Shown piece by piece: positions 10,049 to 41,953 of a DNA stretch of 64,000 bases. Made by a program: the position numbers and the translations under genes. Numbering within the stretch: position 1 is the stretch's first letter; the number at the start of each line of letters is the position of its first letter. Origin of the DNA: an uncultured Bacilli bacterium (GTDB lineage Bacteria; Bacillota_I; Bacilli_A; RF39; UBA660); NCBI GenBank assembly GCA_947625575.1, contig CANQOV010000001.1, positions 1,498-65,497 of the forward strand, written 5' to 3'. The notes under the pieces were generated by a model. The model did no database searches. It was not told where the DNA came from and saw only the letters and a program-made list of their open reading frames with translations.

Positions 10049-10058
10049 GCTTATAGGA

Positions 10059-12040: not shown

Positions 12041-12048
12041 GTGATAAA

Positions 12049-13101
12049 ATGAAAAATTATAAAAATTTAATAAAAGTTATAATATTTATTTTTATATTTT
12101 GTATATTATGGCATATAACATTTAAAATATTGTGGGGTGAAAATACAGCACTTTCTTATTTTTATGAAGAAAAAGAAAACACAATTGATGTAGCCTATGT
12201 TGGTGCTAGTAATGTTTACGTATACTTTAACACAACACTTGCATACAACGAATATGGTTTTACAACCTATAATATTGCTACCGACTCGCAACCATTTGTC
12301 TATATAAAATACCTCCTTAAAGAAATTCAAAAATACCAAAAACCAAAACTTTACATAATTGATATAACGAGAATTATTTCAAATCCAGATTATTATGATG
12401 AAAATTCAATAAGAAAATTAATTGATAGTATGAAAAAATCATATAATCAATATGAAGCTTTAACTAGTGTTTTGGATTATTTAGAAATGCCAAATGAAGA
12501 AAGAGTAAATTATTATTTTAGTTTTCTTTTATATCACAATAGATGGGAAGACTTTAAAGGGAAAAGTTTGACTGAAAATACAAATTTATATAAAGGTTTT
12601 CAAACAAAAAATTATAATTTCAATATTAAACCTCAAAAGAAAATATTATGGAATAATGATTCATCTATTAAAGTAACTGACAAAAATAAAGAAGTTTTGC
12701 TAGATTTATTAGAATATATAAATGATAATAATTTAAACGTACTTTTTACAATTCCATGTAGAACATTTAATGCTACAGAAATGAGTAAATTAAATGATGC
12801 AACCAAAATTATTAATAAATATGACTACCAAGTAATAAATTTTAATCAAAATGATTCTTACATTGATTACTCAAATGACTTATATAATCCAAATCATTTA
12901 AATATATATGGCTCAACAAAATTTACATTATATTTTGCCAAATATTTAGATAATATTTATAATTTGCCTGATCATAGAAATGATGAAAAATATTCATCTT
13001 GGGTTGAAGAATACAATAGATTTAAAAGCAAATATGAGCAAAAAACAAATAATAATTTTGAAGCTTTAGTCAAAGAATATAAAGAAAAATATAATTTTTA
13101 A
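12049..13101 (+). CDS. DltD/AlgJ-like membrane-anchored SGNH-fold protein (MBOAT partner)
   Basis: N-terminal TM anchor. Putative nucleophile block VAYVGASNVY and His block NPNHLNIYG. Sits immediately after the MBOAT gene. Weak motif-level call. Confidence 0.4.
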   Translation: MKNYKNLIKVIIFIFIFCILWHITFKILWGENTALSYFYEEKENTIDVAYVGASNVYVYFNTTLAYNEYGFTTYNIATDSQPFVYIKYLLKEIQKYQKPKLYIIDITRIISNPDYYDENSIRKLIDSMKKSYNQYEALTSVLDYLEMPNEERVNYYFSFLLYHNRWEDFKGKSLTENTNLYKGFQTKNYNFNIKPQKKILWNNDSSIKVTDKNKEVLLDLLEYINDNNLNVLFTIPCRTFNATEMSKLNDATKIINKYDYQVINFNQNDSYIDYSNDLYNPNHLNIYGSTKFTLYFAKYLDNIYNLPDHRNDEKYSSWVEEYNRFKSKYEQKTNNNFEALVKEYKEKYNF

Positions 13102-13113: not shown

Positions 13114-13521
13114 ATGAATAACAAAAGTTTATTAAGAGAAAATATAGTAAAAATATTATATGAAACATATATCTACGAAAAAAGTAATGTAACGTATTCA
13201 ATAAACGACTTAATAAAAGAACAACAGGAAGTAGATAATAAATTTGTAACTGAAGCTGTTAACTATATTAAGAAAAATCAAACCAATATTAATAATATTG
13301 CTAATAAATATTTAAAGAATTGGGATATAGATAGATTAAGTCCTGTGGATAAAGCAATATTTTCTCTTGCTATATATGAATTAAAATATACAGATACACC
13401 AAAAATTGTAGCTATAAATGAAGCTATCGAACTAGCTAAAAAATATAGTGATGATAAAGTTGTAGCGATGGTAAATGCTTCATTAGATAAACTATATCAT
13501 GATGAGGTCCAAGATGAATAA
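13114..13521 (+). CDS. nusB: Transcription antitermination factor NusB
   Basis: 135 aa. Synteny nusB-xseA-xseB. The C-terminal half resembles NusB. Confidence 0.75.
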   Translation: MNNKSLLRENIVKILYETYIYEKSNVTYSINDLIKEQQEVDNKFVTEAVNYIKKNQTNINNIANKYLKNWDIDRLSPVDKAIFSLAIYELKYTDTPKIVAINEAIELAKKYSDDKVVAMVNASLDKLYHDEVQDE

Positions 13522-14779
13522 TGATAGATATTTAACTATTACTCAAATAAATAAATATTTAAAATATAAATTTGATAATGATGATAATTTATCTATAGTA
13601 TATTTAAAAGGAGAAATATCAAATTTTAAGAATCATACTACAGGACATTTATATTTTACTTTAAAAGATGAAAATTCAAGAATACTAGCAATAATGTTTA
13701 AAAACAATGCCCAAAATTTAAAATTCCAACCAAAAGACGGCTCAAAAGTTTTAGTAACAGGTAAAATAAGTGTTTATGAAGCAACTGGAAATTATCAAAT
13801 ATATGTAACTGATATGCAAGAAGATGGAGTAGGAAACCTCTATTTAGAGTTTGAAAAATTAAAGAAAAAGTTGTCTGAACTTGGCTATTTTAATGAAGAT
13901 CATAAAAAACCAATACCAAAATTTCCAAGAAAAATTGGAGTAATAACTGCTAAAACAGGAGCAGCAATTAAAGATATAATTACTACAATCAATAGAAGAT
14001 ATAGAATATGCGAAATTTATTTATTCCCAGCACTAGTTCAAGGAGAAAATGCCAAAGAAGATATCGTTAGCAAATTAAAAATAGCAGATGAATATAACCT
14101 AGATGTAATAATATTAGGCCGTGGTGGTGGCTCAATTGAAGATTTATGGCCATTTAATGAAGAAATAGTAGCTAAAGCTATCTACGAAGCAAAAACACCA
14201 ATAATAAGTGCAGTAGGTCATGAAATAGATTTTACAATTGCAGATTTTGTTGCTGATTTAAGAGCACCAACACCAACCGCTGGAGCAGAACTTGCCGTAC
14301 CAAATCAACTAGAATTAAAAGAATATATAAAACAATTAGAATTACGACAAATAAAAAATATAAAACATTTAATTGAAACAAAAACAAAACATCTAGATTA
14401 TTTAAAATCAAATCATATCTTAAAAAATCCGATGGATATTTATATTGTAAAGCAACAAAAACTAGATATGTTAATAGAAAAAATGATTTATCTATTTAAA
14501 GAAAAATTAAACATAGCTAGTAATAAAATTACTATAACAAGTAATAACCTAAAAGTAGATATTAAAAATATCTTTGATAAAAAACAGATATATTTTACAA
14601 ATTTATTAAGTAAAATAGAAACACTAAATCCCATAAATACAATTAAAAGAGGTTATAGTATTACAAGATTAGATAATAAAATAGTAGATATTAAAAAAAT
14701 AAAAAAAGATGATTTAATAAAAACAGAATTACAAACTGGCTTTATAACATCTAAAGTAGTAGAAGTGGAGGAAAAATAA
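13499..14779 (+). CDS. xseA: Exodeoxyribonuclease VII large subunit
   Basis: OB-fold N-terminus (…[22 protein letters not shown]…), then the catalytic …[14 protein letters not shown]…[13 protein letters not shown]… core. Confidence 0.85.
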
Positions 14780-15021: not shown

Positions 15022-16131
15022 ATGGCTTATTTATTAATTATCCCCAAATTGATAATAAAATTTATTTATTTAATTTTTAGAATTTTTCCTATTAACGAAA
15101 AAAAAGTTGTTTTCATAAGTAGGCAATCTAATTCTATAACATTAGATTTTAAATTATTAAAAGAAGAAATAACAAAATTAGATGATAGTTTTAAAATAGT
15201 TGTGTTATGCAATAAATTACAAATGTCTTTTAAAGGAATAATTAGTTATTCTTTTGTAATAATTAAACAATTATATCATTTAGCAACTTCTAAAGTGTGT
15301 GTTGTTGATTCCTATTGCATGGCCTTAAGCAATGTAAAATTAAAAAAAGGAATAACTGTTATACAAATATGGCATGCAATAGCTACAATTAAAAAATTTG
15401 GATATCAAACAATATATAAACAATATGGAAGGCAAAGCAAAGTGGCTAAAATCCTTAATATGCATAAAAATTATGATTATGTAGTATCAGGATCAGAAAC
15501 TATGAAACCAATATTTGCTGAAGCTTTTAATGTGCCAACAAGTAAAGTTATCTGCTGTGGTACACCAAGAATAGATTATTTACTAAGAAATTGTGACAAT
15601 ATTAAAGATGAGATATTGAAACATTATCCTCAATTAACCAAAAAGAAGAATATTTTATATGCTCCAACTTTTAGAAGAGACAAGGATATTGGTATTAATA
15701 AATTAGTAAATATTATTGATTTTAATAAATATAATCTTATAGTTAAAACTCATCCAGTAAAAAATCAGACTTTTAATAATAAATTTATTTTAAATTGTAA
15801 AGAATTTATTACAACAGATTTACTAACTGTTGCTGATTATGTAATAACTGATTATTCTTCTATTTGTATAGAATCAGCTTTATTAAACAAGCCTACTTAT
15901 TTTTATTTATATGATATTGATGATTATAATAAATTTAATGGTTTAAATGTTGATTTAGAAAAAGAAATGAAGCCATATTGTTTTAAGAATTTTAATAAAT
16001 TATACAAATCATTAGAAAAAAATTACCAATACGAAAAATTACATAATCTAAAAAATAAATATGTTACAAATCAAAATGGAAATTCTACAACTACTTTAGC
16101 TGAACTTATTGTCCATAATAGGCAAAATTAA
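15022..16131 (+). CDS. CDP-glycerol glycerophosphotransferase family protein (TagB/TagF-like)
   Basis: TagF-family motif …IQIWHAIATIKKFGYQ… plus a C-terminal …YFYLYDIDDY… region. Confidence 0.65.
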   Translation: MAYLLIIPKLIIKFIYLIFRIFPINEKKVVFISRQSNSITLDFKLLKEEITKLDDSFKIVVLCNKLQMSFKGIISYSFVIIKQLYHLATSKVCVVDSYCMALSNVKLKKGITVIQIWHAIATIKKFGYQTIYKQYGRQSKVAKILNMHKNYDYVVSGSETMKPIFAEAFNVPTSKVICCGTPRIDYLLRNCDNIKDEILKHYPQLTKKKNILYAPTFRRDKDIGINKLVNIIDFNKYNLIVKTHPVKNQTFNNKFILNCKEFITTDLLTVADYVITDYSSICIESALLNKPTYFYLYDIDDYNKFNGLNVDLEKEMKPYCFKNFNKLYKSLEKNYQYEKLHNLKNKYVTNQNGNSTTTLAELIVHNRQN

Positions 16132-16195: not shown

Positions 16196-17503
16196 ATGAA
16201 AAAAAAGGTTTATATAGCAATGTCTGCTGATGTTATACATCAAGGTCACATCAATATCATCGAAGAAGGTGCAAAATATGGAGATGTAATAATTGGTTTA
16301 CTAACTGATGAAGCTATTGCTAGTTACAAACGCATGCCACTATTAAATTATGAAAATAGAAAAAAAATATTTGAAAATCTTAAAAATGTTACTGAAATAG
16401 TACCACAAAGCACGCTTGACTATACTGAAAATCTAAGAAAAATTAAACCAGATTATGTATTACATGGAGATGATTGGCGTACAGGAATTCAAAGTGTAGT
16501 TAGAGATAATGTAATTAATACCTTAAAAGAATGGAACGGAGAATTAATTGAAATACCTTATACTAAAGATGTAAATTCTACTGATTTAGAACATAAATAT
16601 CGTGAACTTACAAATACACCTGATATAAGAAGAGCAAAACTTCGTCAACTTTTAAAATTTAAACCATATATAAGTGTTATGGAAGCATCAAATGGATTAT
16701 CAGGATTAATTGTTGAAAATGCAACTGCCATTAATCGCGATAGTAAAACGACAAAAGAGTTTGATGCGATGTGGGTTAGTAGTTTATGTGATTCAACATT
16801 TAAAGGAAAACCTGATATTGAATTAGTTGATTTAACTAGTAGAATAAATACAATCAATGAAATATTGGAAGTTACTACTAAACCAATAATATTAGATGGT
16901 GATACTGGTGGTAAAATAGAGCATTTTGTATACAATGTTAAAACCTTAGAAAGACTTGGAGTTTCAGCTATTATTATTGAAGATAAAACAGGTTTAAAGA
17001 AAAATTCATTATTTGGTACAGAAGTTAAACAAACTTTAGATGATCCAGATAGATTTGCAGAAAAAATAAAAGCAGGAAAACAAGCTCTTGCAACAAAGGA
17101 TTTCATGATTTTTGCAAGATTAGAAAGCTTAATTGCTGGTATGGGAATAGATGATGCTTTATCAAGAGCTGATAAATATATCGAAGCAGGAGCAGATGGA
17201 ATAATGATTCACAGCAAAGAAAAAACAGGATTGGATATAAAAGAATTTTTAGAAAGATTTAAGAAAAAATATCATAATGTTCCAACAATAGTAGTACCTA
17301 CTTCATATAATCAATTTACAGAAGAAGAATTACATGAGTGGGGTGCAAATATAATTATTCATGCAAATCATTTATTAAGGAGTGCATATCCAGCAATGAT
17401 GAAAACAGCTAAAACAATACTAGAAAATGGCAGAAGCAAAGAAGCTGATGAGTATTGTATGCCAATAAAAGAAATTATAACATTAATTCCGGGGGGAAAA
17501 TAA
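16196..17503 (+). CDS. pepM: Phosphoenolpyruvate mutase (PepM/AepX) with N-terminal cytidylyltransferase-like (HxGH) domain
   Basis: N-terminus …[16 protein letters not shown]… (HxGH nucleotidyltransferase). C-terminal PEP mutase core …ILDGDTGG…IIIEDK…. Confidence 0.8.
17492..17497 (+). repeat. G6 tract at the pepM stop / ppd start junction
   Basis: …att ccg ggg gga aaa TAA a ATG… Loss of one G puts ppd in frame with pepM. Confidence 0.85.
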
Positions 17504-17504
17504 A

Positions 17505-18614
17505 ATGATAGATACAGAAGAATTTTACAAATATTTAATTAGTAAAAAACTTGATTTTTTTGCTGGTGTTCCTGATTCTTTATTAAAAAACTTATGTGCT
17601 TGCATTAAAGCTAACACTAAAACAGATCACAACATCATTGCTGCCAATGAGGGAAATGCTATTGCAATGGCTGCAGGATATCATATTGCATCAGGCAATT
17701 ATGGTGTCGTATATATGCAAAATTCTGGTATCGGAAATGCAGTTAATCCATTACTTTCTTTAGTAGATGAAGAAGTGTATAGTATTCCAATGCTATTAAT
17801 TGTAGGTTGGAGAGGAGAGCCGGGCACAAAAGATGAGCCACAGCATGTTAAACAAGGAAAAGTAACTATTGAATTATTTAAAACAATGGGAATTGAAACT
17901 ATTATTTTAGATGAAAATTATAAAAGCCAAATAGACTATTGTTATAATTATATGAAAGAAAACAATAAACCAATTGCTGTTATCATAAAAAAAGGTTTAT
18001 TTAGTAATTATAAAATAGATATGCCTGAAAACAATTATCAAATAAAAAGAGAAGAAGCTTTAGAAACAATATTAAAATGTTTAGATAAAGATGATTTTGT
18101 AGTTTCAACTACAGGAAAAACATCAAGAGAAATTTTTGAAATAAGAGAAAGAGATAACGAAGAACACAGTAATGACTTTTTAACAGTTGGATCTATGGGA
18201 CATACTTCATCTATTGCACTTGGTATGAGTATTGGGTGTGACAAAAATATTTATTGTATAGATGGCGACGGATCTTTTATTATGCATATGGGCTCTTTTG
18301 CCATAATTCCATCAGTAGCAAGTAAAAATTTTAAATATATTTTAATAAACAATGGTGCTCATGAATCTGTAGGAGGTCAACCAACTGTAGCATTTAATAT
18401 TAACGTTAAAGATACATTATTATCATTAGGTTTTAAAAATGTTTATACAGCATATACAAAAGAAGATATTGAAAAATATATGAAAAATTTAAAATACGAC
18501 AAATTACAAGCATTAGTAGTTTACACTAAATTAGGATCTAGAGAAGATTTAGGACGTCCTACAATTAGTCCTGTTGATAATAAAAAATCAATGATGAAAA
18601 AATTAAATAAATAA
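17505..18614 (+). CDS. ppd: Phosphonopyruvate decarboxylase (TPP-dependent)
   Basis: TPP-binding motif …CIDGDGSFIMHMGS… Size 369 aa. Immediately downstream of pepM. Confidence 0.75.
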   Translation: MIDTEEFYKYLISKKLDFFAGVPDSLLKNLCACIKANTKTDHNIIAANEGNAIAMAAGYHIASGNYGVVYMQNSGIGNAVNPLLSLVDEEVYSIPMLLIVGWRGEPGTKDEPQHVKQGKVTIELFKTMGIETIILDENYKSQIDYCYNYMKENNKPIAVIIKKGLFSNYKIDMPENNYQIKREEALETILKCLDKDDFVVSTTGKTSREIFEIRERDNEEHSNDFLTVGSMGHTSSIALGMSIGCDKNIYCIDGDGSFIMHMGSFAIIPSVASKNFKYILINNGAHESVGGQPTVAFNINVKDTLLSLGFKNVYTAYTKEDIEKYMKNLKYDKLQALVVYTKLGSREDLGRPTISPVDNKKSMMKKLNK

Positions 18615-18643
18615 CATTAAAATGGAGGAAGTAATAATATTCA

Positions 18644-19387
18644 ATGAAAGCAATAATATTTAATTCAGGAATCGGAAAAAGGATGGGGGATTTCACAAAA
18701 ACACATCATAAGTGCATGGCTGTACTAAATAATGGTGAAACAATATTAGAACGTCAAATAAGAATAATTGGTGAAAATGGAATAAATACATTTATCATCA
18801 CAACCGGTCCATTTAAGCAACAATTATTAGAAGTATGCAAAAAATTCCCTGATTATCAATTTGTTTTTGTTGATAATCCTTTATATCAAAAAACAAATTA
18901 CATATATTCCATGTATTTAGCAAAAGATTATCTTAATGATGATGTTTTATTGCTTCATGGAGATTTAGTATTTAATCAAGAACTAGTAAAAAGTATGCTA
19001 GGTGATAAACGTAGTTCAGTATGTTTAATAAATGAAGACAAACCATTACCTGAAAAAGATTTTAAAGCAAGGGTAGAAAATGGATTATTAAAAGAAGTAT
19101 CAATAAATATCTTTGATAGCAATTGTTATGCTTTTGAGCCATTATACAAGTTAAGTAAATCTGATTTATTAAAATGGCTAGAAAAAGTGAAAGAATTTGT
19201 AAATGAGGGCAATGTAAGCGTTTATGCCGAAAATGCATTGAATACTATATTAGACACATTAAAAATATATACTAAATCATATAAAAATGATTATATTGAT
19301 GAAATAGATAATATTGATGATTATTCAAGAGTTAGAAAAGAAATAGATGAATATGAAAAGAAAAGATTAAGATCTTTGAGAGGATAA
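18644..19387 (+). CDS. LicC/PntC-like cytidylyltransferase (NDP-activation of a phosphonate or phospho-alcohol)
   Basis: N-terminus MKAIIFNSGIGKRMG… gives the nucleotidyltransferase G-x-G-x-R motif. About 240 aa, as for LicC. Confidence 0.6.
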   Translation: MKAIIFNSGIGKRMGDFTKTHHKCMAVLNNGETILERQIRIIGENGINTFIITTGPFKQQLLEVCKKFPDYQFVFVDNPLYQKTNYIYSMYLAKDYLNDDVLLLHGDLVFNQELVKSMLGDKRSSVCLINEDKPLPEKDFKARVENGLLKEVSINIFDSNCYAFEPLYKLSKSDLLKWLEKVKEFVNEGNVSVYAENALNTILDTLKIYTKSYKNDYIDEIDNIDDYSRVRKEIDEYEKKRLRSLRG

Positions 19388-19388
19388 A

Positions 19389-21707
19389 ATGAAACAACAA
19401 ATATATATTGATAATTATAAAAATTTAAATAAAAAAATAGATTTTAAAAAATACAAATCAATTTTATTGATTTGTAGTAATTTTATTTTAGATTCATTTT
19501 TTTATGATTACATAACTAAATTGAATTTACCAATACATATTTTTACAAATTTTAGTCCTAATCCTAAATATGAAGAAGTTCTAGAAGGTATAAAAATTTT
19601 TAAAGAAAATAAATGTGATTTTCTTATAGCAGTGGGTGGAGGAAGTGCCTTAGACGTTGCAAAAGCTATCAAAGCTTTTGTGTTTTTAGATGAAAATAAA
19701 AATTATTTAGAGCAAAAAATAGTGCCAAATAATATACCACTTCTTGCTGTTCCAACCACTGCAGGAACAGGTAGTGAAGCTACAAAATTTGCCGTTATAT
19801 ATTACGCTGGAGCAAAACAGTCATTAGAAGATGAATCATTGCTTCCAGATTATGTAATACTTGAGCCAAAGTTTCTAGAAAGCCTACCAGAATATCAAAA
19901 AAAATCAACTCTTTTAGATGCTTTATGTCATGCAATAGAATCATACTGGTCAATTAATGCTACCAAAGAAAGTAGAAAATATGCCAAACAAAGTTTAGAA
20001 ATAATTCTTAAAAACTATAAAGATTATCTAAATAATCCAACAAAAAAATTAAATAGTGAAATATTAAAAGCAGCTAATTTAAGTGGAAAAGCCATAAATA
20101 TAAGTAAAACGACCGCAGCTCATGCCATGAGTTACAAAATAACATCAATATATGGTTTATCACACGGACACGCTGCTGCAACATGTCTTCCACTTGTATG
20201 GAAATATATGTTAAAATACTCTAACAAAGAATTAGATAAAATATTTAATGATTTAGATAAAATATTTAAGACAACTTCACACCAAGAATCTATTAATAAA
20301 TTGTATTCAATCTATGATGAAATAGGATTAAAATATAAAAACATTGTAAATAAAGAGGATTTAGATAAATTAGTGGAAACAGTTAATATAAATCGTTTAA
20401 AAAATAGTCCAGTACCATTAACACAAAAAGATGTGAAAAAGATATATAGTAAATTAGTTATAAAAGAAAACAAAACATTTAAAAAAAGTATTAAAAACGT
20501 CGTAAATAAAATTCCTTTCATCAAAAAAATATTAAATTATCTTTTATTAATAAAAAGGAAAGTAGTATATAAATTTTATAAAATACGTTACAAAACCAAT
20601 GATAAAATAATCATATTTTCATCTTTTTGGAGTAAAAAATATAATTGTAATCCTAAAGGTATATATGAAGCATTATTAAAGAACAAAAAATATAACGACT
20701 ATAAATTTGTTTGGGTATTTAAAAATCCAAAGCAGTACACTTTTTTAAATGATAACCATAATACCACAACAGTGCGTTTATATTCTAAAAAGTACTATAA
20801 ATATTGTGCACAAGCCAAATATTTTATAACTAATGTTTCATTACCTAGTTGGGTAACACCAAAGAAAGATCAAATATATATAAATACTTGGCATGGTAAA
20901 CCAATGAAAAAAATTGGTTGTAATATAGATCACTCTGCTTTACCACCAAAAAAACTAAAAAAGCAAACAAAAGGATTTAAAAGAAATGGCAAAATATTTA
21001 CCTACTTGTTTTCACCAGCACCATTTTTTACAGCACAAATGGCTACAGCCTATGGTCTTGGAAAAGATAGCAAAAAAGTTATTGAAGTAGGCTATCCAAG
21101 AAATGATTTTTTATTCACATATACAGCCAAAGATGCTAAAGAAATAAAAGATAAATTAAATATTAAAGATAATAAAAAAGTTATATTTTATGCTCCAACT
21201 TGGAGAAATTATGAATATGATACTAAAAAATATAGTTATACTTATCAAAATCATCTAGACTTTGATAAATTAATTAAACAACTAGGAAATGATTATGTAA
21301 TTTTATTTAAAGCCCACAATCAAGAAGAGAACAGTGCTGATATATCAAATTATAAAAATGTTATTGATGTTAGTAGTTTTGACGATATTAACGAATTGTA
21401 TATCATCTCAGATTTAATGATTTCTGATTATTCTGGAGCAATCTTTGACTATGCTAACTTACATCGACCAATGGTTTATTACATGTGGGATAAAGATGAA
21501 TATGTAAATGAAAGTCAAGGCATTGACTTTGATTTTAACGAATTGCCCGGAGAAATTGTTACAAAAGAAGAAAATTTAGCTTCTGCTATAAAAAATGCAT
21601 TAAATAATTTTAAGTATGATGAAAAATATAAAAAATTTAATGAAAGATATAATTGCTTAGATGGAAAAGATTGTGGAAATAAATTCATTGAAAAATATAT
21701 AAAATAG
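19389..21707 (+). CDS. Fusion protein: N-terminal iron-containing alcohol dehydrogenase (putative phosphonoacetaldehyde reductase) and C-terminal TagF-like CDP-alcohol phosphotransferase
   Basis: N-terminal …LIAVGGGSALDVAKAIKAF… is the group-III Fe-ADH signature. C-terminal …YINTWHGKPMKKIG… is the TagF-family motif. 772 aa. Confidence 0.6.
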   Translation: MKQQIYIDNYKNLNKKIDFKKYKSILLICSNFILDSFFYDYITKLNLPIHIFTNFSPNPKYEEVLEGIKIFKENKCDFLIAVGGGSALDVAKAIKAFVFLDENKNYLEQKIVPNNIPLLAVPTTAGTGSEATKFAVIYYAGAKQSLEDESLLPDYVILEPKFLESLPEYQKKSTLLDALCHAIESYWSINATKESRKYAKQSLEIILKNYKDYLNNPTKKLNSEILKAANLSGKAINISKTTAAHAMSYKITSIYGLSHGHAAATCLPLVWKYMLKYSNKELDKIFNDLDKIFKTTSHQESINKLYSIYDEIGLKYKNIVNKEDLDKLVETVNINRLKNSPVPLTQKDVKKIYSKLVIKENKTFKKSIKNVVNKIPFIKKILNYLLLIKRKVVYKFYKIRYKTNDKIIIFSSFWSKKYNCNPKGIYEALLKNKKYNDYKFVWVFKNPKQYTFLNDNHNTTTVRLYSKKYYKYCAQAKYFITNVSLPSWVTPKKDQIYINTWHGKPMKKIGCNIDHSALPPKKLKKQTKGFKRNGKIFTYLFSPAPFFTAQMATAYGLGKDSKKVIEVGYPRNDFLFTYTAKDAKEIKDKLNIKDNKKVIFYAPTWRNYEYDTKKYSYTYQNHLDFDKLIKQLGNDYVILFKAHNQEENSADISNYKNVIDVSSFDDINELYIISDLMISDYSGAIFDYANLHRPMVYYMWDKDEYVNESQGIDFDFNELPGEIVTKEENLASAIKNALNNFKYDEKYKKFNERYNCLDGKDCGNKFIEKYIK

Positions 21708-21719
21708 AAAGGGGTATTT

Positions 21720-24149
21720 ATGAATAAAAACATAAAAGTCTCGGTTATCGTTCCGGTGTATAATGTAGAAAAATATTTAGATAAATGTTTAACATCATTA
21801 GTTAATCAAACACTGAAAGATATTGAAATAATTGTAGTAAATGATGGTACCAAAGACAATTCACAACATATTATTGATAAATATACTAAACAATATCCAA
21901 ATAAGGTTTTTTCCTATATTAAAGAAAATGGTGGATTATCTTCTGCTAGGAACTATGGTGTTTTAAAAGCACACGGGGAATATTTAGGCTTTGTTGATAG
22001 TGATGATTACGTTGATATAAATATGTATGAACTTATGTACAATAAAGCTCATAACACTTCATCTGATATTGTTGTATGTGGACTTACTTCAATATATCAA
22101 AATAAAGATACTCTTAAATTTGTCCCTCAAACTGATATTTTTGGCTATTCACTTACAGAAAGTCCAGACATAATGTTGCAGTGTAATTCATATGCTTGCA
22201 ACAAAATTTATAAAAGAAAAATGTGGATAGATAACAACATTGAATTTCCTAATCAATGGTTTGAAGATAGTGCTTTAATATATAACGCTTTATATTATGC
22301 AAATAAAATTGAGGTGGTAAAAGAGCCACTTTACATGTACTTAAGAACTAATGAAAACTCTATTGTTAATACAATTAATCCCAAGATATTTGATATCTTT
22401 AAATCTTGTGATTCATTATTATCTTTTTATAAAGATAAAGGTAATGACTTATATAGAAATGCTTGCAACTTATGTATTTCCCATGTAACAGCAAGATTTT
22501 TATATTTTAAAAATTCTCACGATAAAAAAATTATCAATGATTTTAAAAATAAAGCCAAAGATTACTTTGATAAGCATATTCCAAATTGGGATAGTAGAAA
22601 ATATCAAAAAGAATTACATTATAGACCAAAATTCATAAAAAATGGTATCACATATATAAACAATAAATTTCTTTACGATTTACTAAAAATAATAGAAAAA
22701 ATAAAAAAAGTATTAATAAAAATTGCAAAGAAAATGTTAAGAATTTTATCAAAAATATTTAATAAAAAAAGAGATGTCGCTCCTCTTAAAGATGTATTTA
22801 AAATATTTAAAAAATTAAATATAACTTACTTTTGTGAATTTAACACTTTAATTGAAGTAACAAACAATAAAATGCCAAACAGTAATTCTTTAAATATTGG
22901 TATTATATTAAATAATGATAAAATTAATATTTTAAAATATAATTTACTACAAAAAAATATAATTTTAAAAAAAGAATATTACTACAATAATAAAGTATAT
23001 GCTCAAGATTATCTATACGAAAAATTAAAAATAAGATTTAATTTTTATGAAATAGAAGATAAAAAACTAATAACTTATGTTTTTAAAAAATTAAAAAATA
23101 TCAAATATAAACCATACAAAATAGATGCTTTAAAAATTAAACAAACAATAATAAAAGATATAGAAACAGTTAATATCAATAATATAGAATTTTCCATACC
23201 AAAAAACTATGATGAAATATTAAAAACAGATTATGGATTAAGCTATATTAAATCAAATAATATAAAAGACATAAAAAACTCTGAAATAATAAAAAACAAT
23301 TCTTATTTTAAAAGAATAATAAGTTATAATAATGATGGCATTGATTATAGAGAAGAAAATTATAAAATGCTACAAGAACTACATAAAATAGAGCTTGAAA
23401 TTCTAAAAGAAATAAATAAAATATGTAAACGCAATAAAATAAATTTCTATTTAGGTGAAGGGACATTACTAGGAGCAGTAAGACATCAAGGATTCATACC
23501 ATGGGATGATGATATTGATTTAATTATGCCAAGAGAAGATTATGAAAAATTCTTAAAAATTGCCCCACAAGAAATATCAAAAGATTTTGAAATTCAGCAT
23601 AGTTCTTTAATTGAAAATTATTGGTCTCCTTTTATTAAAGTAAGATATTTAAAAGAAAACAAATTTAAACAAACGCACATTGCACATTTAACTGATCATA
23701 ATGGTCCATTAATTGATATTTTCCCTTTAGATAATGTTCCAAAAAAAGATAGTTTAGGTCAAATGATACAAGCAATAAGAATCAAATTTAACCGAGGGAT
23801 GTTATCATATAAATTAAAAACAAGATTTCCTAAAAAGTGGAAAGGATATATTGTTAAATGTTGTTCTTACTTTGTAAGTGTAAAACATATTCATAAAGTA
23901 TTAAATAAAACTTTTGTTAAATACAACAATAAAAATAATCCATATATTGTTAATTTAGGAAGTTACTATAGTTATAAAAAACAAACACATCCTAAAAAAT
24001 GGTATGCTAAACCACAAATGGTAAAATTTGAAAATTTGACTATGCCAATACCACATGAGGCCAAAAAAATATTATCAAGTGTATATGGCAAATATATGGA
24101 ACTACCACCTGTTGAAAAAAGAGCTATAAAACATCACTTTGATGAATAA
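21720..24149 (+). CDS. Fusion protein: N-terminal GT2 glycosyltransferase, long K/N/I-rich middle region, C-terminal LicD-family phosphotransferase
   Basis: N-terminal …VSVIVPVYNVEKYLDKCL…VVNDGTKDN…GFVDSDD… is GT-A/GT2. C-terminal …GEGTLLGAVRHQGFIPWDDDIDLIMPRED… is the LicD motif. 809 aa. Confidence 0.65.
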   Translation: MNKNIKVSVIVPVYNVEKYLDKCLTSLVNQTLKDIEIIVVNDGTKDNSQHIIDKYTKQYPNKVFSYIKENGGLSSARNYGVLKAHGEYLGFVDSDDYVDINMYELMYNKAHNTSSDIVVCGLTSIYQNKDTLKFVPQTDIFGYSLTESPDIMLQCNSYACNKIYKRKMWIDNNIEFPNQWFEDSALIYNALYYANKIEVVKEPLYMYLRTNENSIVNTINPKIFDIFKSCDSLLSFYKDKGNDLYRNACNLCISHVTARFLYFKNSHDKKIINDFKNKAKDYFDKHIPNWDSRKYQKELHYRPKFIKNGITYINNKFLYDLLKIIEKIKKVLIKIAKKMLRILSKIFNKKRDVAPLKDVFKIFKKLNITYFCEFNTLIEVTNNKMPNSNSLNIGIILNNDKINILKYNLLQKNIILKKEYYYNNKVYAQDYLYEKLKIRFNFYEIEDKKLITYVFKKLKNIKYKPYKIDALKIKQTIIKDIETVNINNIEFSIPKNYDEILKTDYGLSYIKSNNIKDIKNSEIIKNNSYFKRIISYNNDGIDYREENYKMLQELHKIELEILKEINKICKRNKINFYLGEGTLLGAVRHQGFIPWDDDIDLIMPREDYEKFLKIAPQEISKDFEIQHSSLIENYWSPFIKVRYLKENKFKQTHIAHLTDHNGPLIDIFPLDNVPKKDSLGQMIQAIRIKFNRGMLSYKLKTRFPKKWKGYIVKCCSYFVSVKHIHKVLNKTFVKYNNKNNPYIVNLGSYYSYKKQTHPKKWYAKPQMVKFENLTMPIPHEAKKILSSVYGKYMELPPVEKRAIKHHFDE

Positions 24150-24368: not shown

Positions 24369-24397
24369 TTGACAGAGTCCGGGGGGGGGGTTATAAT
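24369..24397 (+). promoter_or_regulatory. Promoter with a homopolymeric G10 tract forming the -35/-10 spacer (candidate phase-variable promoter)
   Basis: TTGACA (24369-24374), spacer GAGTCC+G10+T = 17 nt, TATAAT (24392-24397). RBS AAGGTGG, then ATG at 24432. Confidence 0.5.
24381..24390 (+). repeat. G10 homopolymer (simple-sequence contingency tract)
   Basis: Ten consecutive G in an AT-rich genome, read directly. Confidence 0.95.
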
Positions 24398-25220: not shown

Positions 25221-26088
25221 AAGTAAATGGATATATAATTTTATAAATATTGGATTTTTATTAATTACTTTAATATTCTTTTTTCAAAAACGTTTATATA
25301 TCATAAATCCAAATTTTACTATTTTTCAATTTTTCTTACTTGTTTTACTCATAATTTTTATTCACTCTTTAAAGTTTTTTAAACTTTATTTTATCGTATT
25401 AGAAGAAAAAATTCCTTTTAAAAATATGCTGAAAATATATATAAAATCAACTTTTTCTAGCATAGTATTGCCTTTTAAAATAGGAGAAATATATAAAGCA
25501 TATTTAATAGGTCATGAAATAAAAAATTATAAAAAAGGTATTATAGCAGTTCTTATTGATAAATTTTATGACGCAATAATTCTTTGCATATCCTTTATCT
25601 GTTATAGCATAATTGCAAATGTAACATTAACAATAACAACCTGGATACTTTTAATTATAATTATTATGATAGTAATTGTATATTATTCTTTTCCAGGAAC
25701 ATATCGCTATTTAAATCGTTTCTTTATTCAAGGCAAACACTCTAACAGAAACATATACGTTTTGCGTGTTTTAGAAAGTTTAGAAAGTTGTTATACAACA
25801 GCAAAAGAAATGATTTGTGGAAGAAGCCTTTTATTTGTTTCACTTGGAATATTTTACTGGCTAGGTGAATCTGTATTTATTTATTTTGTAGTACATGCTT
25901 ATGGATTATTAATAAATTTTGGAAACGTTGTTTTATATGTTAACGATGCCTTTTTAGGAATAAATAATCCTATTTTTAACGTTTATGTATCTATGTGTAC
26001 ATTATTATTTATAATTGCTATAGCATTTATATATTTTGAAAAATATTTTTTAGGAGGTAACAATGAAAAAGTTAGCAGTCATTTATGA
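25210..26088 (+). CDS. Polytopic membrane protein, flippase-like domain (LPG-synthase TM region / PF03706-like)
   Basis: About 8 TM segments. A …LPFKIGEIYKAY… motif is reminiscent of the PF03706 flippase-like family that commonly pairs with GT2 enzymes. Overlaps the upstream gene. Confidence 0.4.
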   Translation: MTNKSKWIYNFINIGFLLITLIFFFQKRLYIINPNFTIFQFFLLVLLIIFIHSLKFFKLYFIVLEEKIPFKNMLKIYIKSTFSSIVLPFKIGEIYKAYLIGHEIKNYKKGIIAVLIDKFYDAIILCISFICYSIIANVTLTITTWILLIIIIMIVIVYYSFPGTYRYLNRFFIQGKHSNRNIYVLRVLESLESCYTTAKEMICGRSLLFVSLGIFYWLGESVFIYFVVHAYGLLINFGNVVLYVNDAFLGINNPIFNVYVSMCTLLFIIAIAFIYFEKYFLGGNNEKVSSHL

Positions 26089-27484
26089 TGATAGAATAGA
26101 GTCAAATGATAGGATAAAAACAATTATTGGCAATAATAGTTTTGGTAACGTTGTCATAAAAAGAAAAAAATTATTTCAATACATAGAAGAAATAGTAGGT
26201 GAAACACCTGATATACTTTTTGAAAAAATTACAAAAGATAGCAACATCACTTTTGCAGATACCGATGATTACGTATATTTTTATATCAAATCAACATCAG
26301 CAGTAATAGATGTAAAAGAATTCAAAATTATATTAGAAAAATTAAGATACATCAACGAAACTACTAAAGTTATGACTAATGAAAAGATGTCAGGTATAGC
26401 TTTTTGTAATTTTGAATTGTTAAAAGACTTTTTAAAAAATATGACTGTTTCTTCAAAAACTAATCAAATAAATACTGCCTGCTTCTCTGATATATCTTCG
26501 TATGATAATTTATTAATGTATATTTCTAGTGCTTTTGATTCTAGATATTTTAATAGTATTTCAGGGGATAAATATTATGTAGAAAAAAAGAGCAAAGATA
26601 AAAAGAAAATGAAAATGGAATATAGCTATTACTGGTTAATTCCAGAAGAAATGAAAAGCTTTATGGTTTTACCATACGACTATAAAGAAGAAAAAGACTA
26701 TGCATCATATAAAATGGAAAGGATGCCTATGACAGACATTGCTATTCGTTTTACCCATCATGCCGTTGACCTAGATGAATTTAAAAAAATATTAGATAAA
26801 ACTTTTCACTTCTTCAATAGTAGAACTAAAAAAGAAATAACCAAAGAAAAATATATAGAAATGGCTAAATCATTATATATTACTAAAACAGAAGAACGTT
26901 TAAAAAAATTAAAAAGTACTGAAGAATATGAAACATTAAATTTATATATTAAAAATGGCACAAAATTTAATGATATAGAAGAAATTTACCAAGAATATGA
27001 AACAATTTATGAAAAAATGATGACAAAATATTTGAAAAAAGAAAAGAAATTTTATCAAGTAATTGGCCATGGAGATGTTTTCTTTGCCAATATGTTATAT
27101 AGCAAAGAAATAAATTTATTGAGACTTATTGATCCCAAAGGAGCTTTGACAGAAGAAGATTTATATATGAATCCTTATTATGATATTGCTAAATTATCAC
27201 ACTCAATATGTGGTAGATATGACTTTTTTAACACTGATATGTACGACATTACAATAAATAAAGATATGAAACTTGAATTAAATATTGATTTTGATAATAC
27301 ACCTTATATTATGGTATTCAAACAATATTTAGATGACAATGGTTATAACTATTCGTTAACCAGATTATTTGAAGCGAGTTTATTTTTATCAATGCTACCA
27401 CTTCATATAGATAATCCAAGAAAAGTATTAGGATTTATCTTAAATGCTATTACTATTTTACAGGAGGTAAAAAAATATGTATAA
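26063..27484 (+). CDS. Two-domain protein with C-terminal APH/choline-kinase-like small-molecule kinase domain
   Basis: Brenner-type catalytic motif …VIGHGDVFFANMLY… (HGDxxxxN) and downstream …RLIDPKG… The N-terminal 220 aa has no recognisable motif. Confidence 0.4.
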   Translation: MKKLAVIYDDRIESNDRIKTIIGNNSFGNVVIKRKKLFQYIEEIVGETPDILFEKITKDSNITFADTDDYVYFYIKSTSAVIDVKEFKIILEKLRYINETTKVMTNEKMSGIAFCNFELLKDFLKNMTVSSKTNQINTACFSDISSYDNLLMYISSAFDSRYFNSISGDKYYVEKKSKDKKKMKMEYSYYWLIPEEMKSFMVLPYDYKEEKDYASYKMERMPMTDIAIRFTHHAVDLDEFKKILDKTFHFFNSRTKKEITKEKYIEMAKSLYITKTEERLKKLKSTEEYETLNLYIKNGTKFNDIEEIYQEYETIYEKMMTKYLKKEKKFYQVIGHGDVFFANMLYSKEINLLRLIDPKGALTEEDLYMNPYYDIAKLSHSICGRYDFFNTDMYDITINKDMKLELNIDFDNTPYIMVFKQYLDDNGYNYSLTRLFEASLFLSMLPLHIDNPRKVLGFILNAITILQEVKKYV

Positions 27485-27878
27485 TGACATAACTTTAGTT
27501 TTTGATGTAGATGGCACTCTTTGTCCGATTAAAACTACTGATGAAGAATACAAAGACTTAATACCAGATAAAGAAATGGTTGAGAAATTAAAAATGTACA
27601 AAAAAGAGGGTGCCAAAATTATTATATATTCATCAAGAAACATGAGAACATATCAAGGCAACATAGGTCTTATAAATGCTAATACAGCTGTAATTATGCA
27701 AGATTGGTTAAAAAAATGGGATATTCCTTATGATGAAATATATTTTGGCAAGCCATGGGCAGGTAAAAAAGGAATATACATAGATGATCGTTGTGTAAGA
27801 CCTGATGAATTTCTAAATTATTCTTTTGATGAACTTGAACAAATATGTAAAAAATCTAGTAGAGTAAAAGGAGAATAA
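27477..27878 (+). CDS. Small HAD-superfamily phosphatase
   Basis: HAD motif I …LVFDVDGTLCP… and motif IV …GIYIDDR… 133 aa. Confidence 0.55.
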   Translation: MYNDITLVFDVDGTLCPIKTTDEEYKDLIPDKEMVEKLKMYKKEGAKIIIYSSRNMRTYQGNIGLINANTAVIMQDWLKKWDIPYDEIYFGKPWAGKKGIYIDDRCVRPDEFLNYSFDELEQICKKSSRVKGE

Positions 27879-27882
27879 AATT

Positions 27883-28602
27883 ATGCAAATAATTATAACT
27901 ATGGCAGGGTTAGGCTCTAGATTTCGTAAAGCAGGATATGACATGCCTAAATATATGATTGAAGTAAAAGGTAAAACTTTATTTGAGTGGTCTATGTCAA
28001 GCCTAAAAGATTTTAATTCTTTAGAAAAGTTAAAATACATATTCATTGTACGCAAAGAAGACAACGCTAAAGAATTTATCCTAAATAAAATGAAAAATGA
28101 AAAAGTAGAAAATATAAAAGTAATTGAAATAGATGAATTAACTGATGGTCAAGCTACAACAGCATATTTAGCAAAAGATTATTGGGATTCTGATGATGAA
28201 ATGATTGTTTACAATATTGATACTTATGTAGAAGCATATACTATATGTTATAAAGATATTAAAGGTGATGGCTTTATTCCTTGCTTTAATGCCCCAGGTG
28301 ATCATTGGAGCTTTGTAAAAACAGATAGTAATAACAAAGCCATAGAAATAAGAGAAAAAGTAAAAATATCTGATAATTGTACTATTGGATTATATTATTT
28401 TAAATCTTGTAAATTATATGAAAACTTGTATCAAGAATACTACAGCAACAATGACCACTTAGAAAAAAATGAAAAATATATTGCTCCTTTATATAATCAT
28501 ATGTTAGAAAAAAATATGGACATATATATAAATATCTTACCTAAAGAAAAAGTACATGTATTAGGAACACCAGAAGAAGTGGAAGAGTTCAAAAAATTAT
28601 GA
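27883..28602 (+). CDS. Nucleotidyltransferase (LicC / sugar-1-P or phospho-alcohol NDP-transferase-like)
   Basis: N-terminus MQIIITMAGLGSRF… is a G-x-G-S-R nucleotidyltransferase loop. 239 aa. Confidence 0.55.
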   Translation: MQIIITMAGLGSRFRKAGYDMPKYMIEVKGKTLFEWSMSSLKDFNSLEKLKYIFIVRKEDNAKEFILNKMKNEKVENIKVIEIDELTDGQATTAYLAKDYWDSDDEMIVYNIDTYVEAYTICYKDIKGDGFIPCFNAPGDHWSFVKTDSNNKAIEIREKVKISDNCTIGLYYFKSCKLYENLYQEYYSNNDHLEKNEKYIAPLYNHMLEKNMDIYINILPKEKVHVLGTPEEVEEFKKL

Positions 28603-30662
28603 AAAAATTATTAAATAATATATGGCAAATATATCATAAGTATGAAGAAATACTAAATTACTTAATAGTAGGAGCAATAGGAGTAGTAATTAGTGTTGTA
28701 TCATATGCCTTAAGCAGATGGATTGGTTTTAATATTGTAACAAGTAATATTATTTCATGGATAATTGCAGTTTTATGCATGTATATCATGAATAAACTTT
28801 TTGTATTTAAAACTAAATTAGAGAATAAAAAAGCATTATTTAAAGAATTTATATCATTTATTACAGCCAGAGTATTCACTTTGATTGTAGAAACACTAAT
28901 CCTTTACTTTGGAACAAATTTACTACATATTAATGATTTATTTGTTAAGGTCATAGCACAAATAGTAATAATTATTTTAAACTACATATTAAGTAAATTA
29001 ATTATATTTAATAAAAACAAAAATCCTAATTCTAAAAAAAAAATACTAAATCGCTTTAATTTTTTATTAGACAAAAAAGTGTTTTTAATTTCTTCAATAA
29101 TATGGCTTATTTATTTTATTACAGGAATCCAAGATAGATTTTTCATAAATAATAATCTATCTTTCAAATCAATATTGCCATACAAAATATTACAATTCAT
29201 ATTATTTTATTTTTTTGGTTTAATAGTTAAAAAAATAATTAGTAATAGAAAAGATATAAAATGTAAACATGGCATTATAATTGGTACCGTATTCGCTATA
29301 ATTATGTTTATATTACTACTAACAATGTGGCCTGGTACTTGGTCATGGGATGATGCTATAACATTAAGGCATGCTCAAACTTATACTATATATCCTTGGC
29401 AACATTTTATTTGTTCTTTGTTCTATATTGTTAGTTTAGAAACATTTCCATTTATGAGCGGAGTTATTATAATGCGTATCATAATAATTTCTATCATTAT
29501 GGGCTATAGTATTTCTAATATTGTTGATATATTCAAAAAAACAGAAAAACAGAGAATAACATATGAAATATTTTTATTAATACCAAGTTTATTTCCTCCA
29601 GTAATTATGTATACTTTATCAGGATATCGAATGGGAATATATAGTTTTATTGAACTACTTTTAATTGTACAATTAATAATAATATTTTATAAAAAGAAAA
29701 AATTAACAATAGGAAATTTTATAGGTTTAGCATTTACTATAATTTTAGTTGCTTCATGGAGAACTGAAGGTATTTACTATATTCCTTGTGTAGCACTTAT
29801 TCTTTTATTCCTAAACAAAAAAATTATACCTAGAAAACAAATATTAACTTTATTTATTATTACGTTAAGTTTTACAATGATAATTAATAAAGTCAATACA
29901 TCTTTAATAGCAAATGATAATTACTCTATAACAGCCATTGTAGAGCCTTTACAAGCATTAATCAAAAAAGCAGATCCTAACGAAGATAAAAGCACATTAC
30001 AACAAATAAGTAGGGTGATTGATATAGACTATATTTATAACAACCCAAATTTGCATGGCGAACAACTTTACTGGAGCCATAAATTAGTAAAACCTAATTA
30101 CAGTAAAGATGACTTTAAAGCCTTATTTAAATCTTATATCAAATTAACTTTAAAATATCCATTAACTTCCATAAAAGCAATGACTAAAATGTATTTAAAA
30201 AGCAGTGGAATTATTTTAAAAAAAGATGGTACTGTTTATCAAAAAACTAATATAAGTCAAGCTTTGACATTATATAATGATGATAACACAGCATGGAGTA
30301 GCATTAGAAACATTAAATCTAGTTTTAAAAAAGCCTCTTCTATAAGAAATCAAACTATGCTTTTATTACGAGGATTTAATAATGACAATAAACCCAATAT
30401 TATTCATTATATATTTTGGAACTTAAACATACCAATTTTATTATTATCGCTATGTTTTATATATAAATTATTTAAAAAAGATTGGTTTTTTAGTAGCATA
30501 ATATTTGTAGTTATGTTAAGAATACCTTTGGTATTTATCACATCTCCAGCACCATACTACATGTATTATCACTCAGTATATTTAATAACATATATAATTG
30601 TATTTTTAATTTTAATAGAAGCTATATTTAATAGTAAAAATAAAAAAGATAATTTAAAATAA
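28599..30662 (+). CDS. Large polytopic membrane protein with N-terminal GtrA-like domain fused to a 550-aa multi-TM (GT-C/GtrC-like?) region
   Basis: Residues 1-130 match GtrA-family topology/sequence (…YLIVGAIGVVISVVSYALSRW…MNKLFVFKT…). Then 12 or more TM segments with periplasmic loops. 687 aa. Confidence 0.45.
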   Translation: MKKLLNNIWQIYHKYEEILNYLIVGAIGVVISVVSYALSRWIGFNIVTSNIISWIIAVLCMYIMNKLFVFKTKLENKKALFKEFISFITARVFTLIVETLILYFGTNLLHINDLFVKVIAQIVIIILNYILSKLIIFNKNKNPNSKKKILNRFNFLLDKKVFLISSIIWLIYFITGIQDRFFINNNLSFKSILPYKILQFILFYFFGLIVKKIISNRKDIKCKHGIIIGTVFAIIMFILLLTMWPGTWSWDDAITLRHAQTYTIYPWQHFICSLFYIVSLETFPFMSGVIIMRIIIISIIMGYSISNIVDIFKKTEKQRITYEIFLLIPSLFPPVIMYTLSGYRMGIYSFIELLLIVQLIIIFYKKKKLTIGNFIGLAFTIILVASWRTEGIYYIPCVALILLFLNKKIIPRKQILTLFIITLSFTMIINKVNTSLIANDNYSITAIVEPLQALIKKADPNEDKSTLQQISRVIDIDYIYNNPNLHGEQLYWSHKLVKPNYSKDDFKALFKSYIKLTLKYPLTSIKAMTKMYLKSSGIILKKDGTVYQKTNISQALTLYNDDNTAWSSIRNIKSSFKKASSIRNQTMLLLRGFNNDNKPNIIHYIFWNLNIPILLLSLCFIYKLFKKDWFFSSIIFVVMLRIPLVFITSPAPYYMYYHSVYLITYIIVFLILIEAIFNSKNKKDNLK

Positions 30663-41238: not shown

Positions 41239-41252
41239 TAAATAAATTGTAA

Positions 41253-41511: not shown

Positions 41512-41514
41512 TTA

Positions 41515-41946: not shown

Positions 41947-41953
41947 ATCTACC

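Follow-up and report, generated by a model that had tools for sequence, protein, structure and literature searches.

Fusion of an iron-containing alcohol dehydrogenase to a TagF-type transferase in a putative hydroxyethylphosphonate wall-polymer operon of an uncultured Bacilli bacterium

We analyzed a 64,000-nucleotide stretch of contig CANQOV010000001.1 from an uncultured Bacilli bacterium (referred to here as the window; G+C content, ~25%). Its forward strand carries a gene that joins a group-III iron-containing alcohol dehydrogenase (Fe-ADH) to a TagF-type transferase (positions 19389 to 21707, one uninterrupted ATG-to-stop open reading frame [ORF] of 772 amino acids). The gene follows a set of phosphonate biosynthesis genes within a wall-polymer cluster, and our favored, if by no means secure, reading is that it encodes a bifunctional enzyme of a pathway that places 2-hydroxyethylphosphonate (HEP) on a wall glycopolymer. 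In this pathway, the dehydrogenase half would make HEP and the TagF half would transfer it.

Residues 11 to 356 (19419 to 20456, + strand) form the Fe-ADH domain according to motifs, a fold match, and Pfam, in which PF00465 covers residues 11 to 160 (E = 8e-37; 126.8 bits; gathering score, 31.3) and ADH_Fe_C (PF25137) covers residues 173 to 356 (E = 8e-28; 98 bits; gathering score, 27). The TagF family model Glyphos_transf (PF04464) covers residues 397 to 759 with a score far above gathering (E = 7e-92; 308.7 bits), and this GT-B phosphotransferase domain extends to the C terminus at residue 772 (20577 to 21704, +). The TWHG motif occupies residues 500 to 503. The junction (residues 357 to 400; 20457 to 20588, +) consists of a hinge at residues 361 to 370, followed by basic helices at residues 363 to 374 and 376 to 400. 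In an AlphaFold2 model computed from a 92-sequence alignment, both halves were well folded (mean predicted local distance difference test score, 94.1), with a single dip (~65) at the hinge, and the predicted template modeling score of 0.60 means that the packing of the two domains against each other is not confident. Searched with Foldseek against the PDB, the N-terminal half best matched sulfoacetaldehyde reductase (6JKO; TMt, 0.86; root mean square deviation, 2.6 Å) and the C-terminal half best matched Staphylococcus epidermidis TagF (3L7x; TMt, 0.80); no solved chain spanned both. The ORF, Pfam, AlphaFold2, and Foldseek results confirmed the two domain calls and the TWHG motif of an earlier annotation of this gene (referred to here as the original prediction).

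Three genes on the + strand precede the fusion. The first (16196 to 17503) encodes a Fom1-type cytidylyltransferase (CyTase) fused to a phosphoenolpyruvate (PEP) mutase (Ppm), which scored 389.5 bits against TIGR02320 (cutoff, 319.55) and contains the EDKxxxxxNS motif of Ppm. Its CyTase domain (PF01467) matched Fom1 (PDB 5X3D) with an E value of 2e-52 (180 bits) and Bacillus subtilis TagD with an E value of 5e-10 (42 bits); on these scores, we rejected the idea that this domain is a TagD supplying CDP-glycerol. The second (17505 to 18614) encodes a phosphonopyruvate decarboxylase (Ppd; TIGR03297, 435.5 bits; cutoff, 312.5). The third (18644 to 19387) encodes an NTP_transf_3 nucleotidyltransferase (PF12804, hereafter NTP3) that is nearest to the 2-aminoethylphosphonate (2-AEP) cytidylyltransferase PntC (6PD1; 2e-11) and LicC, and its stop codon lies 1 nt before the ATG of the fusion. 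The intergenic gaps across positions 16196 to 24149 measure only 1 to 29 nt. The locus thus has the marks of Pnt-type clusters, namely, PF01467 fused to Ppm, an adjacent PF12804 gene, and family 2 glycosyltransferase (GT2), LicD, TagF, and TagGH genes nearby. No aminotransferase was present among the scanned large ORFs of the 15- to 32-kb region, and reduction is therefore the only fate of phosphonoacetaldehyde that these ORFs encode.

Because Ppm, Ppd, and a nucleotidyltransferase lie upstream and an aminotransferase does not accompany them, the ADH domain is most likely a phosphonoacetaldehyde reductase that makes HEP. The original prediction had guessed a reduced phosphonate as the substrate, and the Fom1-type CyTase::PEP mutase, Ppd, and PntC-like genes ahead of the ADH indicate that this guess was right. 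The possibility that the ADH domain is catalytically dead did not hold, as its cofactor and metal residues are intact and conserved: GGGS at residues 83 to 86, D177, H181, H245, and H259 are all present and are kept in at least 200 of 202 family members. Metal-site position 181 is either His or Gln; most relatives resemble sulfoacetaldehyde reductase in having Gln. In PhpC, HEP is held by a salt-bridge clamp of K157 and R349, along with T256 and the strictly conserved Y264 (2026 study; PMC13576164). Residues K143, T241, Y249, and R336 of the fusion, which are kept in at least 198 of the 202 family members, stand at the same spacing from the metal ligands as these HEP-binding residues, a correspondence mapped by spacing only.

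It is also conceivable, but very improbable, that the ADH acts on some other substrate, such as sulfoacetaldehyde, a polyol phosphate (as in glycerol 1-phosphate dehydrogenase), or a sugar aldehyde of the polymer. The best NCBIfam model for the domain is the phosphonate-associated TIGR03405, but its score of 159 bits is far under the equivalog cutoff of 423.7, and the models for ErcA, AdhE, and lactaldehyde reductase score nearly as high. This shortfall weighs against the reductase assignment and, with it, against the bifunctional reading, and because of it we do not file the domain as a TIGR03405 equivalog. Similarly, 23 of 80 species-level loci of this ADH subfamily lacked Ppm and Ppd within the sequence examined. 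Ppm and/or Ppd nevertheless occurred within 8 kb of the ADH in the other 57 loci, and the placement of the ADH directly after Ppm-Ppd-NTP is kept across many lineages. Moreover, the cluster encodes no other consumer of phosphonoacetaldehyde, the PhpC-type clamp residues (as mapped by spacing) are conserved, and the glycerol 1-phosphate dehydrogenase model gave an E value of only 3e-4. On balance, phosphonoacetaldehyde remains by far the best candidate substrate.

As a separate observation, ADH homologs with 43 to 46% identity occur in Saccharibacteria (L028, L032, L040, L047, L052, and L058) and Megasphaera (L017 and L079). No Ppm, Ppd, LicD, or TagF was detected at these loci in the sequence examined, for which the 8-kb flanks were mostly full.

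The TagF half retains the catalytic apparatus of its family. It aligned with S. epidermidis TagF (3L7I) with an E value of 1e-66, placing H502, the presumptive catalytic base, at TagF H444 and H643 (21315 to 21317, +), the second catalytic His, at TagF H584. The surroundings of these residues differ at two sites. TarL and TagF bind the donor polyol at the loop that follows the catalytic His (PMC10901376), and H479-G480-T481-P482 and S647-S648 are among the key CDP-glycerol-site residues common to CgoT and TagF (PMC11666461). In the fusion, the His, Gly, Pro, first Ser, and Asp of this site are kept, whereas K504 takes the Thr position in W501-H502-G503-K504-P505 (20889 to 20903, +), within the donor polyol-binding loop, and G683 replaces the second Ser of DYSS (TagF S625; CgoT S648) in S679-D680-Y681-S682-G683 (21423 to 21437, +). 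The structural roles given here to the two residues come from published descriptions of homologs, not from a liganded model of the fusion.

These two replacements coincide with a clade. In a tree of 164 TagF domains, computed by neighbor joining only, the TagF domain of the window fell in a 17-leaf clade (bootstrap support, 60/60) drawn solely from phosphonate loci: 6 members are fused to an ADH, 6 lie immediately downstream of one, and 5 lie elsewhere in phosphonate loci. The combination of W-H-G-K-P and S-D-Y-S-G (the K/SG signature) was present in all 17 members and in none of the 147 other TagF domains, while W-H-G-T-P and T-D-Y-S-S (the T/TS signature) were found together in 63 of 78 domains in a TagD context. 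The T/TS-type relatives adjoin stand-alone TagD genes and no phosphonate genes. The K/SG signature is likewise found in NTP3::ADH::TagF chains, as well as in three stand-alone proteins (P0140, P0148, and P0163) encoded at loci with the order LicD, Ppd, NTP3, MptE-like, ADH, TagF. An internal control is provided by a second TagF-family gene of the window (15022 to 16131, +), a TarB-like paralog with WHA.. and TDYSS that clusters with the TagD-context enzymes. Members of the clade thus differ from the CDP-glycerol enzymes at two positions of the CDP-glycerol site, with the catalytic machinery kept. We therefore lean toward the view that the TagF domain transfers an HEP-phosphonyl group, with CMP-HEP as its donor.

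Four loci of this clade have further features in common. MptE-like (PF01973) domains occur in the phosphonate/TagF loci of L001 (3958 to 7921), L084 (18851 to 21033), L167, and L168, together with Kdo-type (KdsA/KdsB/KpsF/KdsC-like) or NeuB/CMP-sugar synthetase genes and choline-binding-repeat proteins. These gene sets hint that the polymers may contain ulosonic acids in addition to HEP.

The most substantial competing explanation, which we consider unlikely but far from negligible, is that the TagF domain is a conventional TarF-like CDP-glycerol enzyme, served by a TagD encoded elsewhere, that builds a glycerol-phosphate linker or chain, while the LicD domain of the next gene, with the PntC-like enzyme, puts HEP on the polymer. 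The fusion would then merely tie together two branches that converge on one polymer. Besides the alignment with S. epidermidis TagF, in which neither catalytic His is lost, this explanation draws on the best NCBIfam hit of the domain, which is TarF (NF041712; 252.1 bits), and on relatives with 43 to 47% identity (P0228, P0168, and most of 80 metagenome loci) that are linked to TagD and not to phosphonate genes. It also draws on the cluster of L085 (TagF, TagF, GT2, GT2::LicD, TagD, and TagGH), which resembles the layout of the window without the phosphonate genes. However, a tblastn search of the 64-kb window with two TagD sequences matched only the Fom1-type domain, which is the sole PF01467 domain there; the well-supported clade is confined to phosphonate loci; and both CDP-glycerol-site residues are changed in every one of its members. 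LicD is the dominant fusion partner of the ADH, and NTP3::ADH::LicD chains exist, but there are also NTP3::ADH::TagF chains without LicD, and 3 of the 57 Ppm/Ppd loci have TagF and no LicD within 8 kb.

Several of these observations, and some others, weigh against transfer of HEP by the TagF domain. The TarF match did not reach its equivalog cutoff (252 versus 550 bits), the TagD-linked relatives are without phosphonate genes, and the compact, Pro-containing "glycerol-type" loop (P505-M506) is retained and is compatible with the use of CDP-glycerol. LicD is a far more common fusion partner than TagF (30 ADH::LicD versus 7 ADH::TagF proteins), LicD-like proteins are the transferases already proposed for CMP-phosphonates (PMC6697681), and the window has its own LicD domain in a GT2::LicD fusion (21720 to 24149, +; identified by profile search), which is an alternative candidate HEP transferase. 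The ADH::TagF::LicD fusions P0003 and P0004 carry the canonical T/TS signature. The clade itself was recovered mostly by ADH-anchored sampling, with only L084 and L086 coming from TagF-anchored sampling. The TarB-like gene implies that CDP-glycerol is supplied from elsewhere in the genome, and the K/SG signature could reflect the choice of acceptor rather than donor. Finally, the K/SG-type TagF P0134 (L166; a 14-kb contig) is accompanied by neither Ppm, Ppd, or ADH nor TagD, a warning that the clade may not be strictly HEP specific. The neighbors of P0134 are an NTP_transf_3 protein 54% identical to that of the window, two MFS transporters, TagGH, LicD, and an LCP ligase. Such a neighborhood is consistent with a non-glycerol donor that the NTP_transf_3 enzyme produces, possibly from an imported precursor (a salvage version of the pathway), or with a different small head-group donor.

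We also asked whether the fusion is genuine. The closest relative (78% identity) is L004, a rabbit-gut metagenome-assembled genome (MAG) labeled "uncultured Bacilli bacterium," in which the same gene order is found with ADH and TagF as two genes. In L004, the ADH ends with ...NIYKKLI-TAA, and the TagF ATG overlaps the ADH stop codon as TAATG. The six closest TagF homologs (59 to 78% identity; 346 to 413 amino acids) all stand alone. That these nearest relatives are unfused, and that the junction is A rich, with A5 to A7 runs, are the points that would favor a sequencing or assembly frameshift artefact joining two separate genes, an outcome that the original prediction had named as one of its two possible refutations. 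Against this, the ADH C terminus of the window (KKIYSKLV; ENIYKKLI* in L004) and its TagF N terminus KTFKKSIKNVVNKIP (KTFKK..NKIP; KKFKK..NKIP in L004) are homologous to their L004 counterparts in a single frame, with the junction helices of the fusion corresponding to the native N terminus of the stand-alone TagF homolog. No stop codon and no in-frame ATG, GTG, or TTG lies between the ADH and TagF parts. We then simulated every single-base deletion or duplication across positions 20430 to 20599. Within 20434 to 20591, all such changes left the TagF part without an ATG, GTG, or TTG until approximately residue 461, with a loss of at least 65 conserved residues, and the four positions in the simulated range that yielded two ORFs truncated the conserved ADH tail. 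No Shine-Dalgarno-like sequence was seen at the junction, no signs of frameshifts were found in the other scanned genes of the window, and independent in-frame ADH::TagF fusions exist elsewhere. Given the one-frame homology, the simulation, and the intact reading frames of the other scanned genes, an origin through a single indel appears very unlikely, and we regard an artefact of any such kind as highly improbable. Because L004 has two genes and the six nearest TagF homologs stand alone, the fusion is young in this lineage, having arisen through loss of the TAATG overlap between adjacent ADH and TagF genes.

To place the architecture among its relatives, we searched two protein collections. 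Neither contained a full-length match to the 772-amino-acid protein with more than 51% identity, while 27,748 of 1.84 billion representatives matched at an E value of ≤1e-3. Domains were typed in 260 proteins (the best 120 of one search plus the new ones among the best 150 of another). Of these, 14 had ADH and TagF in one chain (7 ADH::TagF, 5 NTP3::ADH::TagF, and 2 ADH::TagF::LicD), compared with 80 NTP3::ADH, 68 ADH alone, and 30 ADH::LicD. At 50% identity, chains with both ADH and TagF amount to about 14 clusters within the 1.84 billion representatives. The original prediction had called the fusion unusual; this is fair for the exact architecture, which is rare, but not for the ADH family, which is habitually fused to NTP_transf_3 or LicD. 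ADH::TagF belongs to a widespread set of ADH fusions with nucleotidyltransferase, LicD, GT2, or TagF domains.

ADH and TagF are repeatedly linked, both as neighbors and as fusions. They are adjacent but separate genes in L004, L005, L006, L014, L038, L084, L167, and L168, and they are fused in L001, L007, L009, L033, L050, L086, and P0001 to P0004, while the NTP3::ADH::TagF chains represent five 50%-identity clusters. The TagF domains of P0003 and P0004 come from a lineage different from that of the window, and ADH and TagF were thus fused more than once. The module CyT::Ppm, Ppd, NTP3, ADH::TagF::LicD is also present in L002. Most of the relatives are labeled gut or rumen Firmicute MAGs. Some single ORFs encode giant chains, such as NTP3::ADH::LicD::GT2::TagF in L050 (3252 to 8795; 1,848 amino acids) and NTP3::ADH::LicD::GT2 in L046 (2790 to 6521; 1,244 amino acids). 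In L007 (5562 to 10133) and L009 (7977 to 12326), one ORF of 1,450 to 1,524 amino acids contains ADH, ~400 unassigned residues, TagF, and an MptE-like domain.

Taken together, these data suggest the following pathway, in which each of the first four steps is backed either by a family assignment that exceeds its curated cutoff or by strong homology combined with context. The PEP mutase domain (16196 to 17503) would convert PEP to phosphonopyruvate, the decarboxylase (17505 to 18614) would convert this to phosphonoacetaldehyde, and the N-terminal Fe-ADH domain of the fusion would use NAD(P)H to reduce the aldehyde to HEP. CMP-HEP would then be formed on separate proteins, by the PntC-like enzyme, the Fom1-type CyTase domain, or both; Fom1 CyTase converts HEP and CTP to CMP-HEP, according to Cho et al. 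2017 as summarized in PMC6697681. The C-terminal TagF domain, held at the inner membrane face through its basic N-terminal helices, would use H502 as the base, so that an acceptor hydroxyl of a lipid-linked wall polymer attacks the phosphonate phosphorus of CMP-HEP, releasing CMP and leaving an HEP phosphonate ester on the polymer. Export would proceed through the TagGH-like ABC transporter.

One consequence concerns the purpose of the fusion. HEP must be cytidylylated by separate proteins before TagF or LicD can use it, which means that the fusion joins nonconsecutive steps and that the ADH product is not channeled directly to the transferase. The direct metabolite channeling into polymer synthesis suggested in the original prediction is therefore unsupported, and it is further disfavored by the flexible hinge and the lack of a confident domain interface in the AlphaFold2 model. 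Most plausibly, the fusion serves coexpression and membrane colocalization, not substrate tunneling.

How much HEP might be added per acceptor is suggested by protein size. The stand-alone relatives are TarF sized and lack the extra N-terminal domain of TagF-type polymerases, which favors single or few additions over long polymerization. In a bolder version of the pathway, which we consider improbable, the K/SG clade comprises phosphonyl transferases that build HEP into the main chain of a teichoic-acid-like polymer instead of attaching it as a terminal group. Once transferred, HEP would present its free 2-hydroxyl as the next acceptor, either for another HEP (giving a poly-hydroxyethylphosphonate stretch) or for GT2::LicD. 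If this were true, the wall polymer would have C-P bonds in its chain and would not be fully degradable by ordinary phosphodiesterases.

Comparison with characterized systems clarifies what is shared and what is not. The ADH half resembles the reductases PhpC, FomC, and DhpG (group-III Fe-ADH, PF00465; TIGR03405) in fold, cofactor and metal motifs, and gene position after Ppm and Ppd, and PhpC also in the equal spacing of its Lys/Arg/Thr/Tyr anion-binding residues (mapped by spacing only). However, the known enzymes stand alone in antibiotic or catabolic pathways, whereas the ADH of the window forms the N-terminal part of a transferase encoded among wall-polymer genes. The TagF half shares with TagF/TarF (PF04464; S. 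epidermidis TagF 3L7I) the GT-B fold, the WHG motif and second catalytic His, the PTWR, DYS, and FD motifs, the basic N-terminal helices, and a size like that of single-addition TarF-type enzymes; it differs in K504 for Thr, G683 for Ser, the absence of a nearby TagD, its phosphonate-restricted clade, and the fused oxidoreductase. With the Fom1/Pnt pathway (PMC6697681), the cluster has in common Ppm, Ppd, nucleotidyl activation, transfer to a surface glycan, a habit of fusion, and a close homolog of the Fom1 CyTase (180 bits), but the fusions described there involve Ppm, and the proposed transferase is LicD-like.

Other fusions offer partial parallels. The capsule polymerases Cps3D and Bcs3 (PMC11666461 and PMC5974469) likewise join a TagF-type domain to biosynthetic domains for the same polymer (Cps3D 8QOY, E = 2e-43). 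In these enzymes, TagF and glycosyltransferase domains alternate on a growing chain, whereas the partner in the window makes a soluble precursor two steps upstream. The NTP_transf_3::ADH and ADH::LicD fusions of gut Firmicutes share the ADH subfamily (42 to 59% identity) and the Ppm-Ppd context, but their partner domain either catalyzes the following reaction of the pathway (nucleotidyltransferase) or is a transferase of the LicD type. A looser lead is the Clostridioides difficile flagellin type-A locus, whose glycan can carry 2-AEP and which contains a TagF-like gene of undefined function (CD630_02440, taken as cd0244).

Much of this framework is already known, including the Pnt/Fom1 logic, reductases of the PhpC type, a propensity for fusion among phosphonate enzymes, and HEP on actinomycete polysaccharides, as reported for the exopolysaccharide of Stackebrandtia nassauensis and for the polysaccharides of two actinomycetes (PMC13576164). 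Neither an ADH::TagF fusion nor a proposed role in phosphonyl transfer for a TagF-type enzyme turned up in the literature searched. Taken alone, the fusion is a small step in evolution; of more use is the finding of a TagF clade that is restricted to phosphonate loci and has an altered donor site. Phosphonate decoration of bacterial surfaces is common in genomes, and the transfer of the activated phosphonate onto the glycan is biochemically unassigned: Rice et al. 2019 called the post-Ppm steps enigmatic and suggested LicD-like transferases (PMC6697681). The fusion, the recurrent adjacency of ADH and TagF, and the restricted clade point to TagF-type enzymes as a second family of candidate phosphonyl transferases, and the altered donor site (K504 and G683) makes this step of phosphonate tailoring testable. 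Given that the relatives come mostly from gut or rumen MAGs, wall polymers bearing HEP could be widespread on cell surfaces in these communities and could act as a source of environmental HEP.

The remaining genes of the cluster form a + strand block between nusB-xseA (13114 to 14779) and spoIVB (32406). Further glycosyltransferase and membrane protein genes follow GT2::LicD, and a TagG/TagH-like ABC-2 exporter pair (30790 to 32315, +) closes the wall-polymer cluster before spoIVB. A scan of the whole window with Rfam detected no RNA family, and a promoter/terminator scan of the 14.5- to 33-kb region showed no enrichment over shuffled sequences. One perfect sigma-70 consensus (TTGACA-17-TATAAT; 24369 to 24397, +) lies within the 282-nt gap after GT2::LicD, an arrangement suggesting that 24149 marks the end of the phosphonate/TagF operon and that a second transcription unit begins near 24369.

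Two unrelated nucleotidyltransferase domains, the Fom1-type PF01467 and the PntC/LicC-type PF12804, occur in most HEP-type clusters (16196 to 19387 in the window; also L016, L019, and L022) and are often joined to Ppm as NTP3::CyT::Ppm; the simple pathway does not explain a need for both. The cluster also has a putative second activation set (26063 to 30662, +), which comprises a 473-amino-acid protein without a family match, a small HAD-like phosphatase (27477 to 27878), a third, weakly IspD-like nucleotidyltransferase (27883 to 28602), and a 687-amino-acid protein in which only an N-terminal GtrA domain was recognized. Just upstream of nusB, a four-gene run (8031 to 13101, +) encodes an FkbH-like protein with an HAD domain (592 amino acids), a glyoxalase-family protein, an MBOAT O-acyltransferase (509 amino acids), and a 350-amino-acid protein without a Pfam or NCBIfam match; this run may be a separate surface-polymer acylation module.

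Two features lie farther downstream. The alanyl-tRNA synthetase (51733 to 53487, - strand) has only 584 amino acids, comprising the catalytic core and SAD without the C-terminal domain. We considered whether this short form was a sign of a frameshift-prone assembly and rejected the idea, as the adjoining gene encodes an Asp/Glu racemase. At ~41 to 42 kb, the GC skew changes from positive to strongly negative and gene orientation switches from + to - at the same point, and a XerC/XerD-type tyrosine recombinase is encoded at 43126 to 44067 (-); the region from ~41000 to 44100 looks like a replication terminus.

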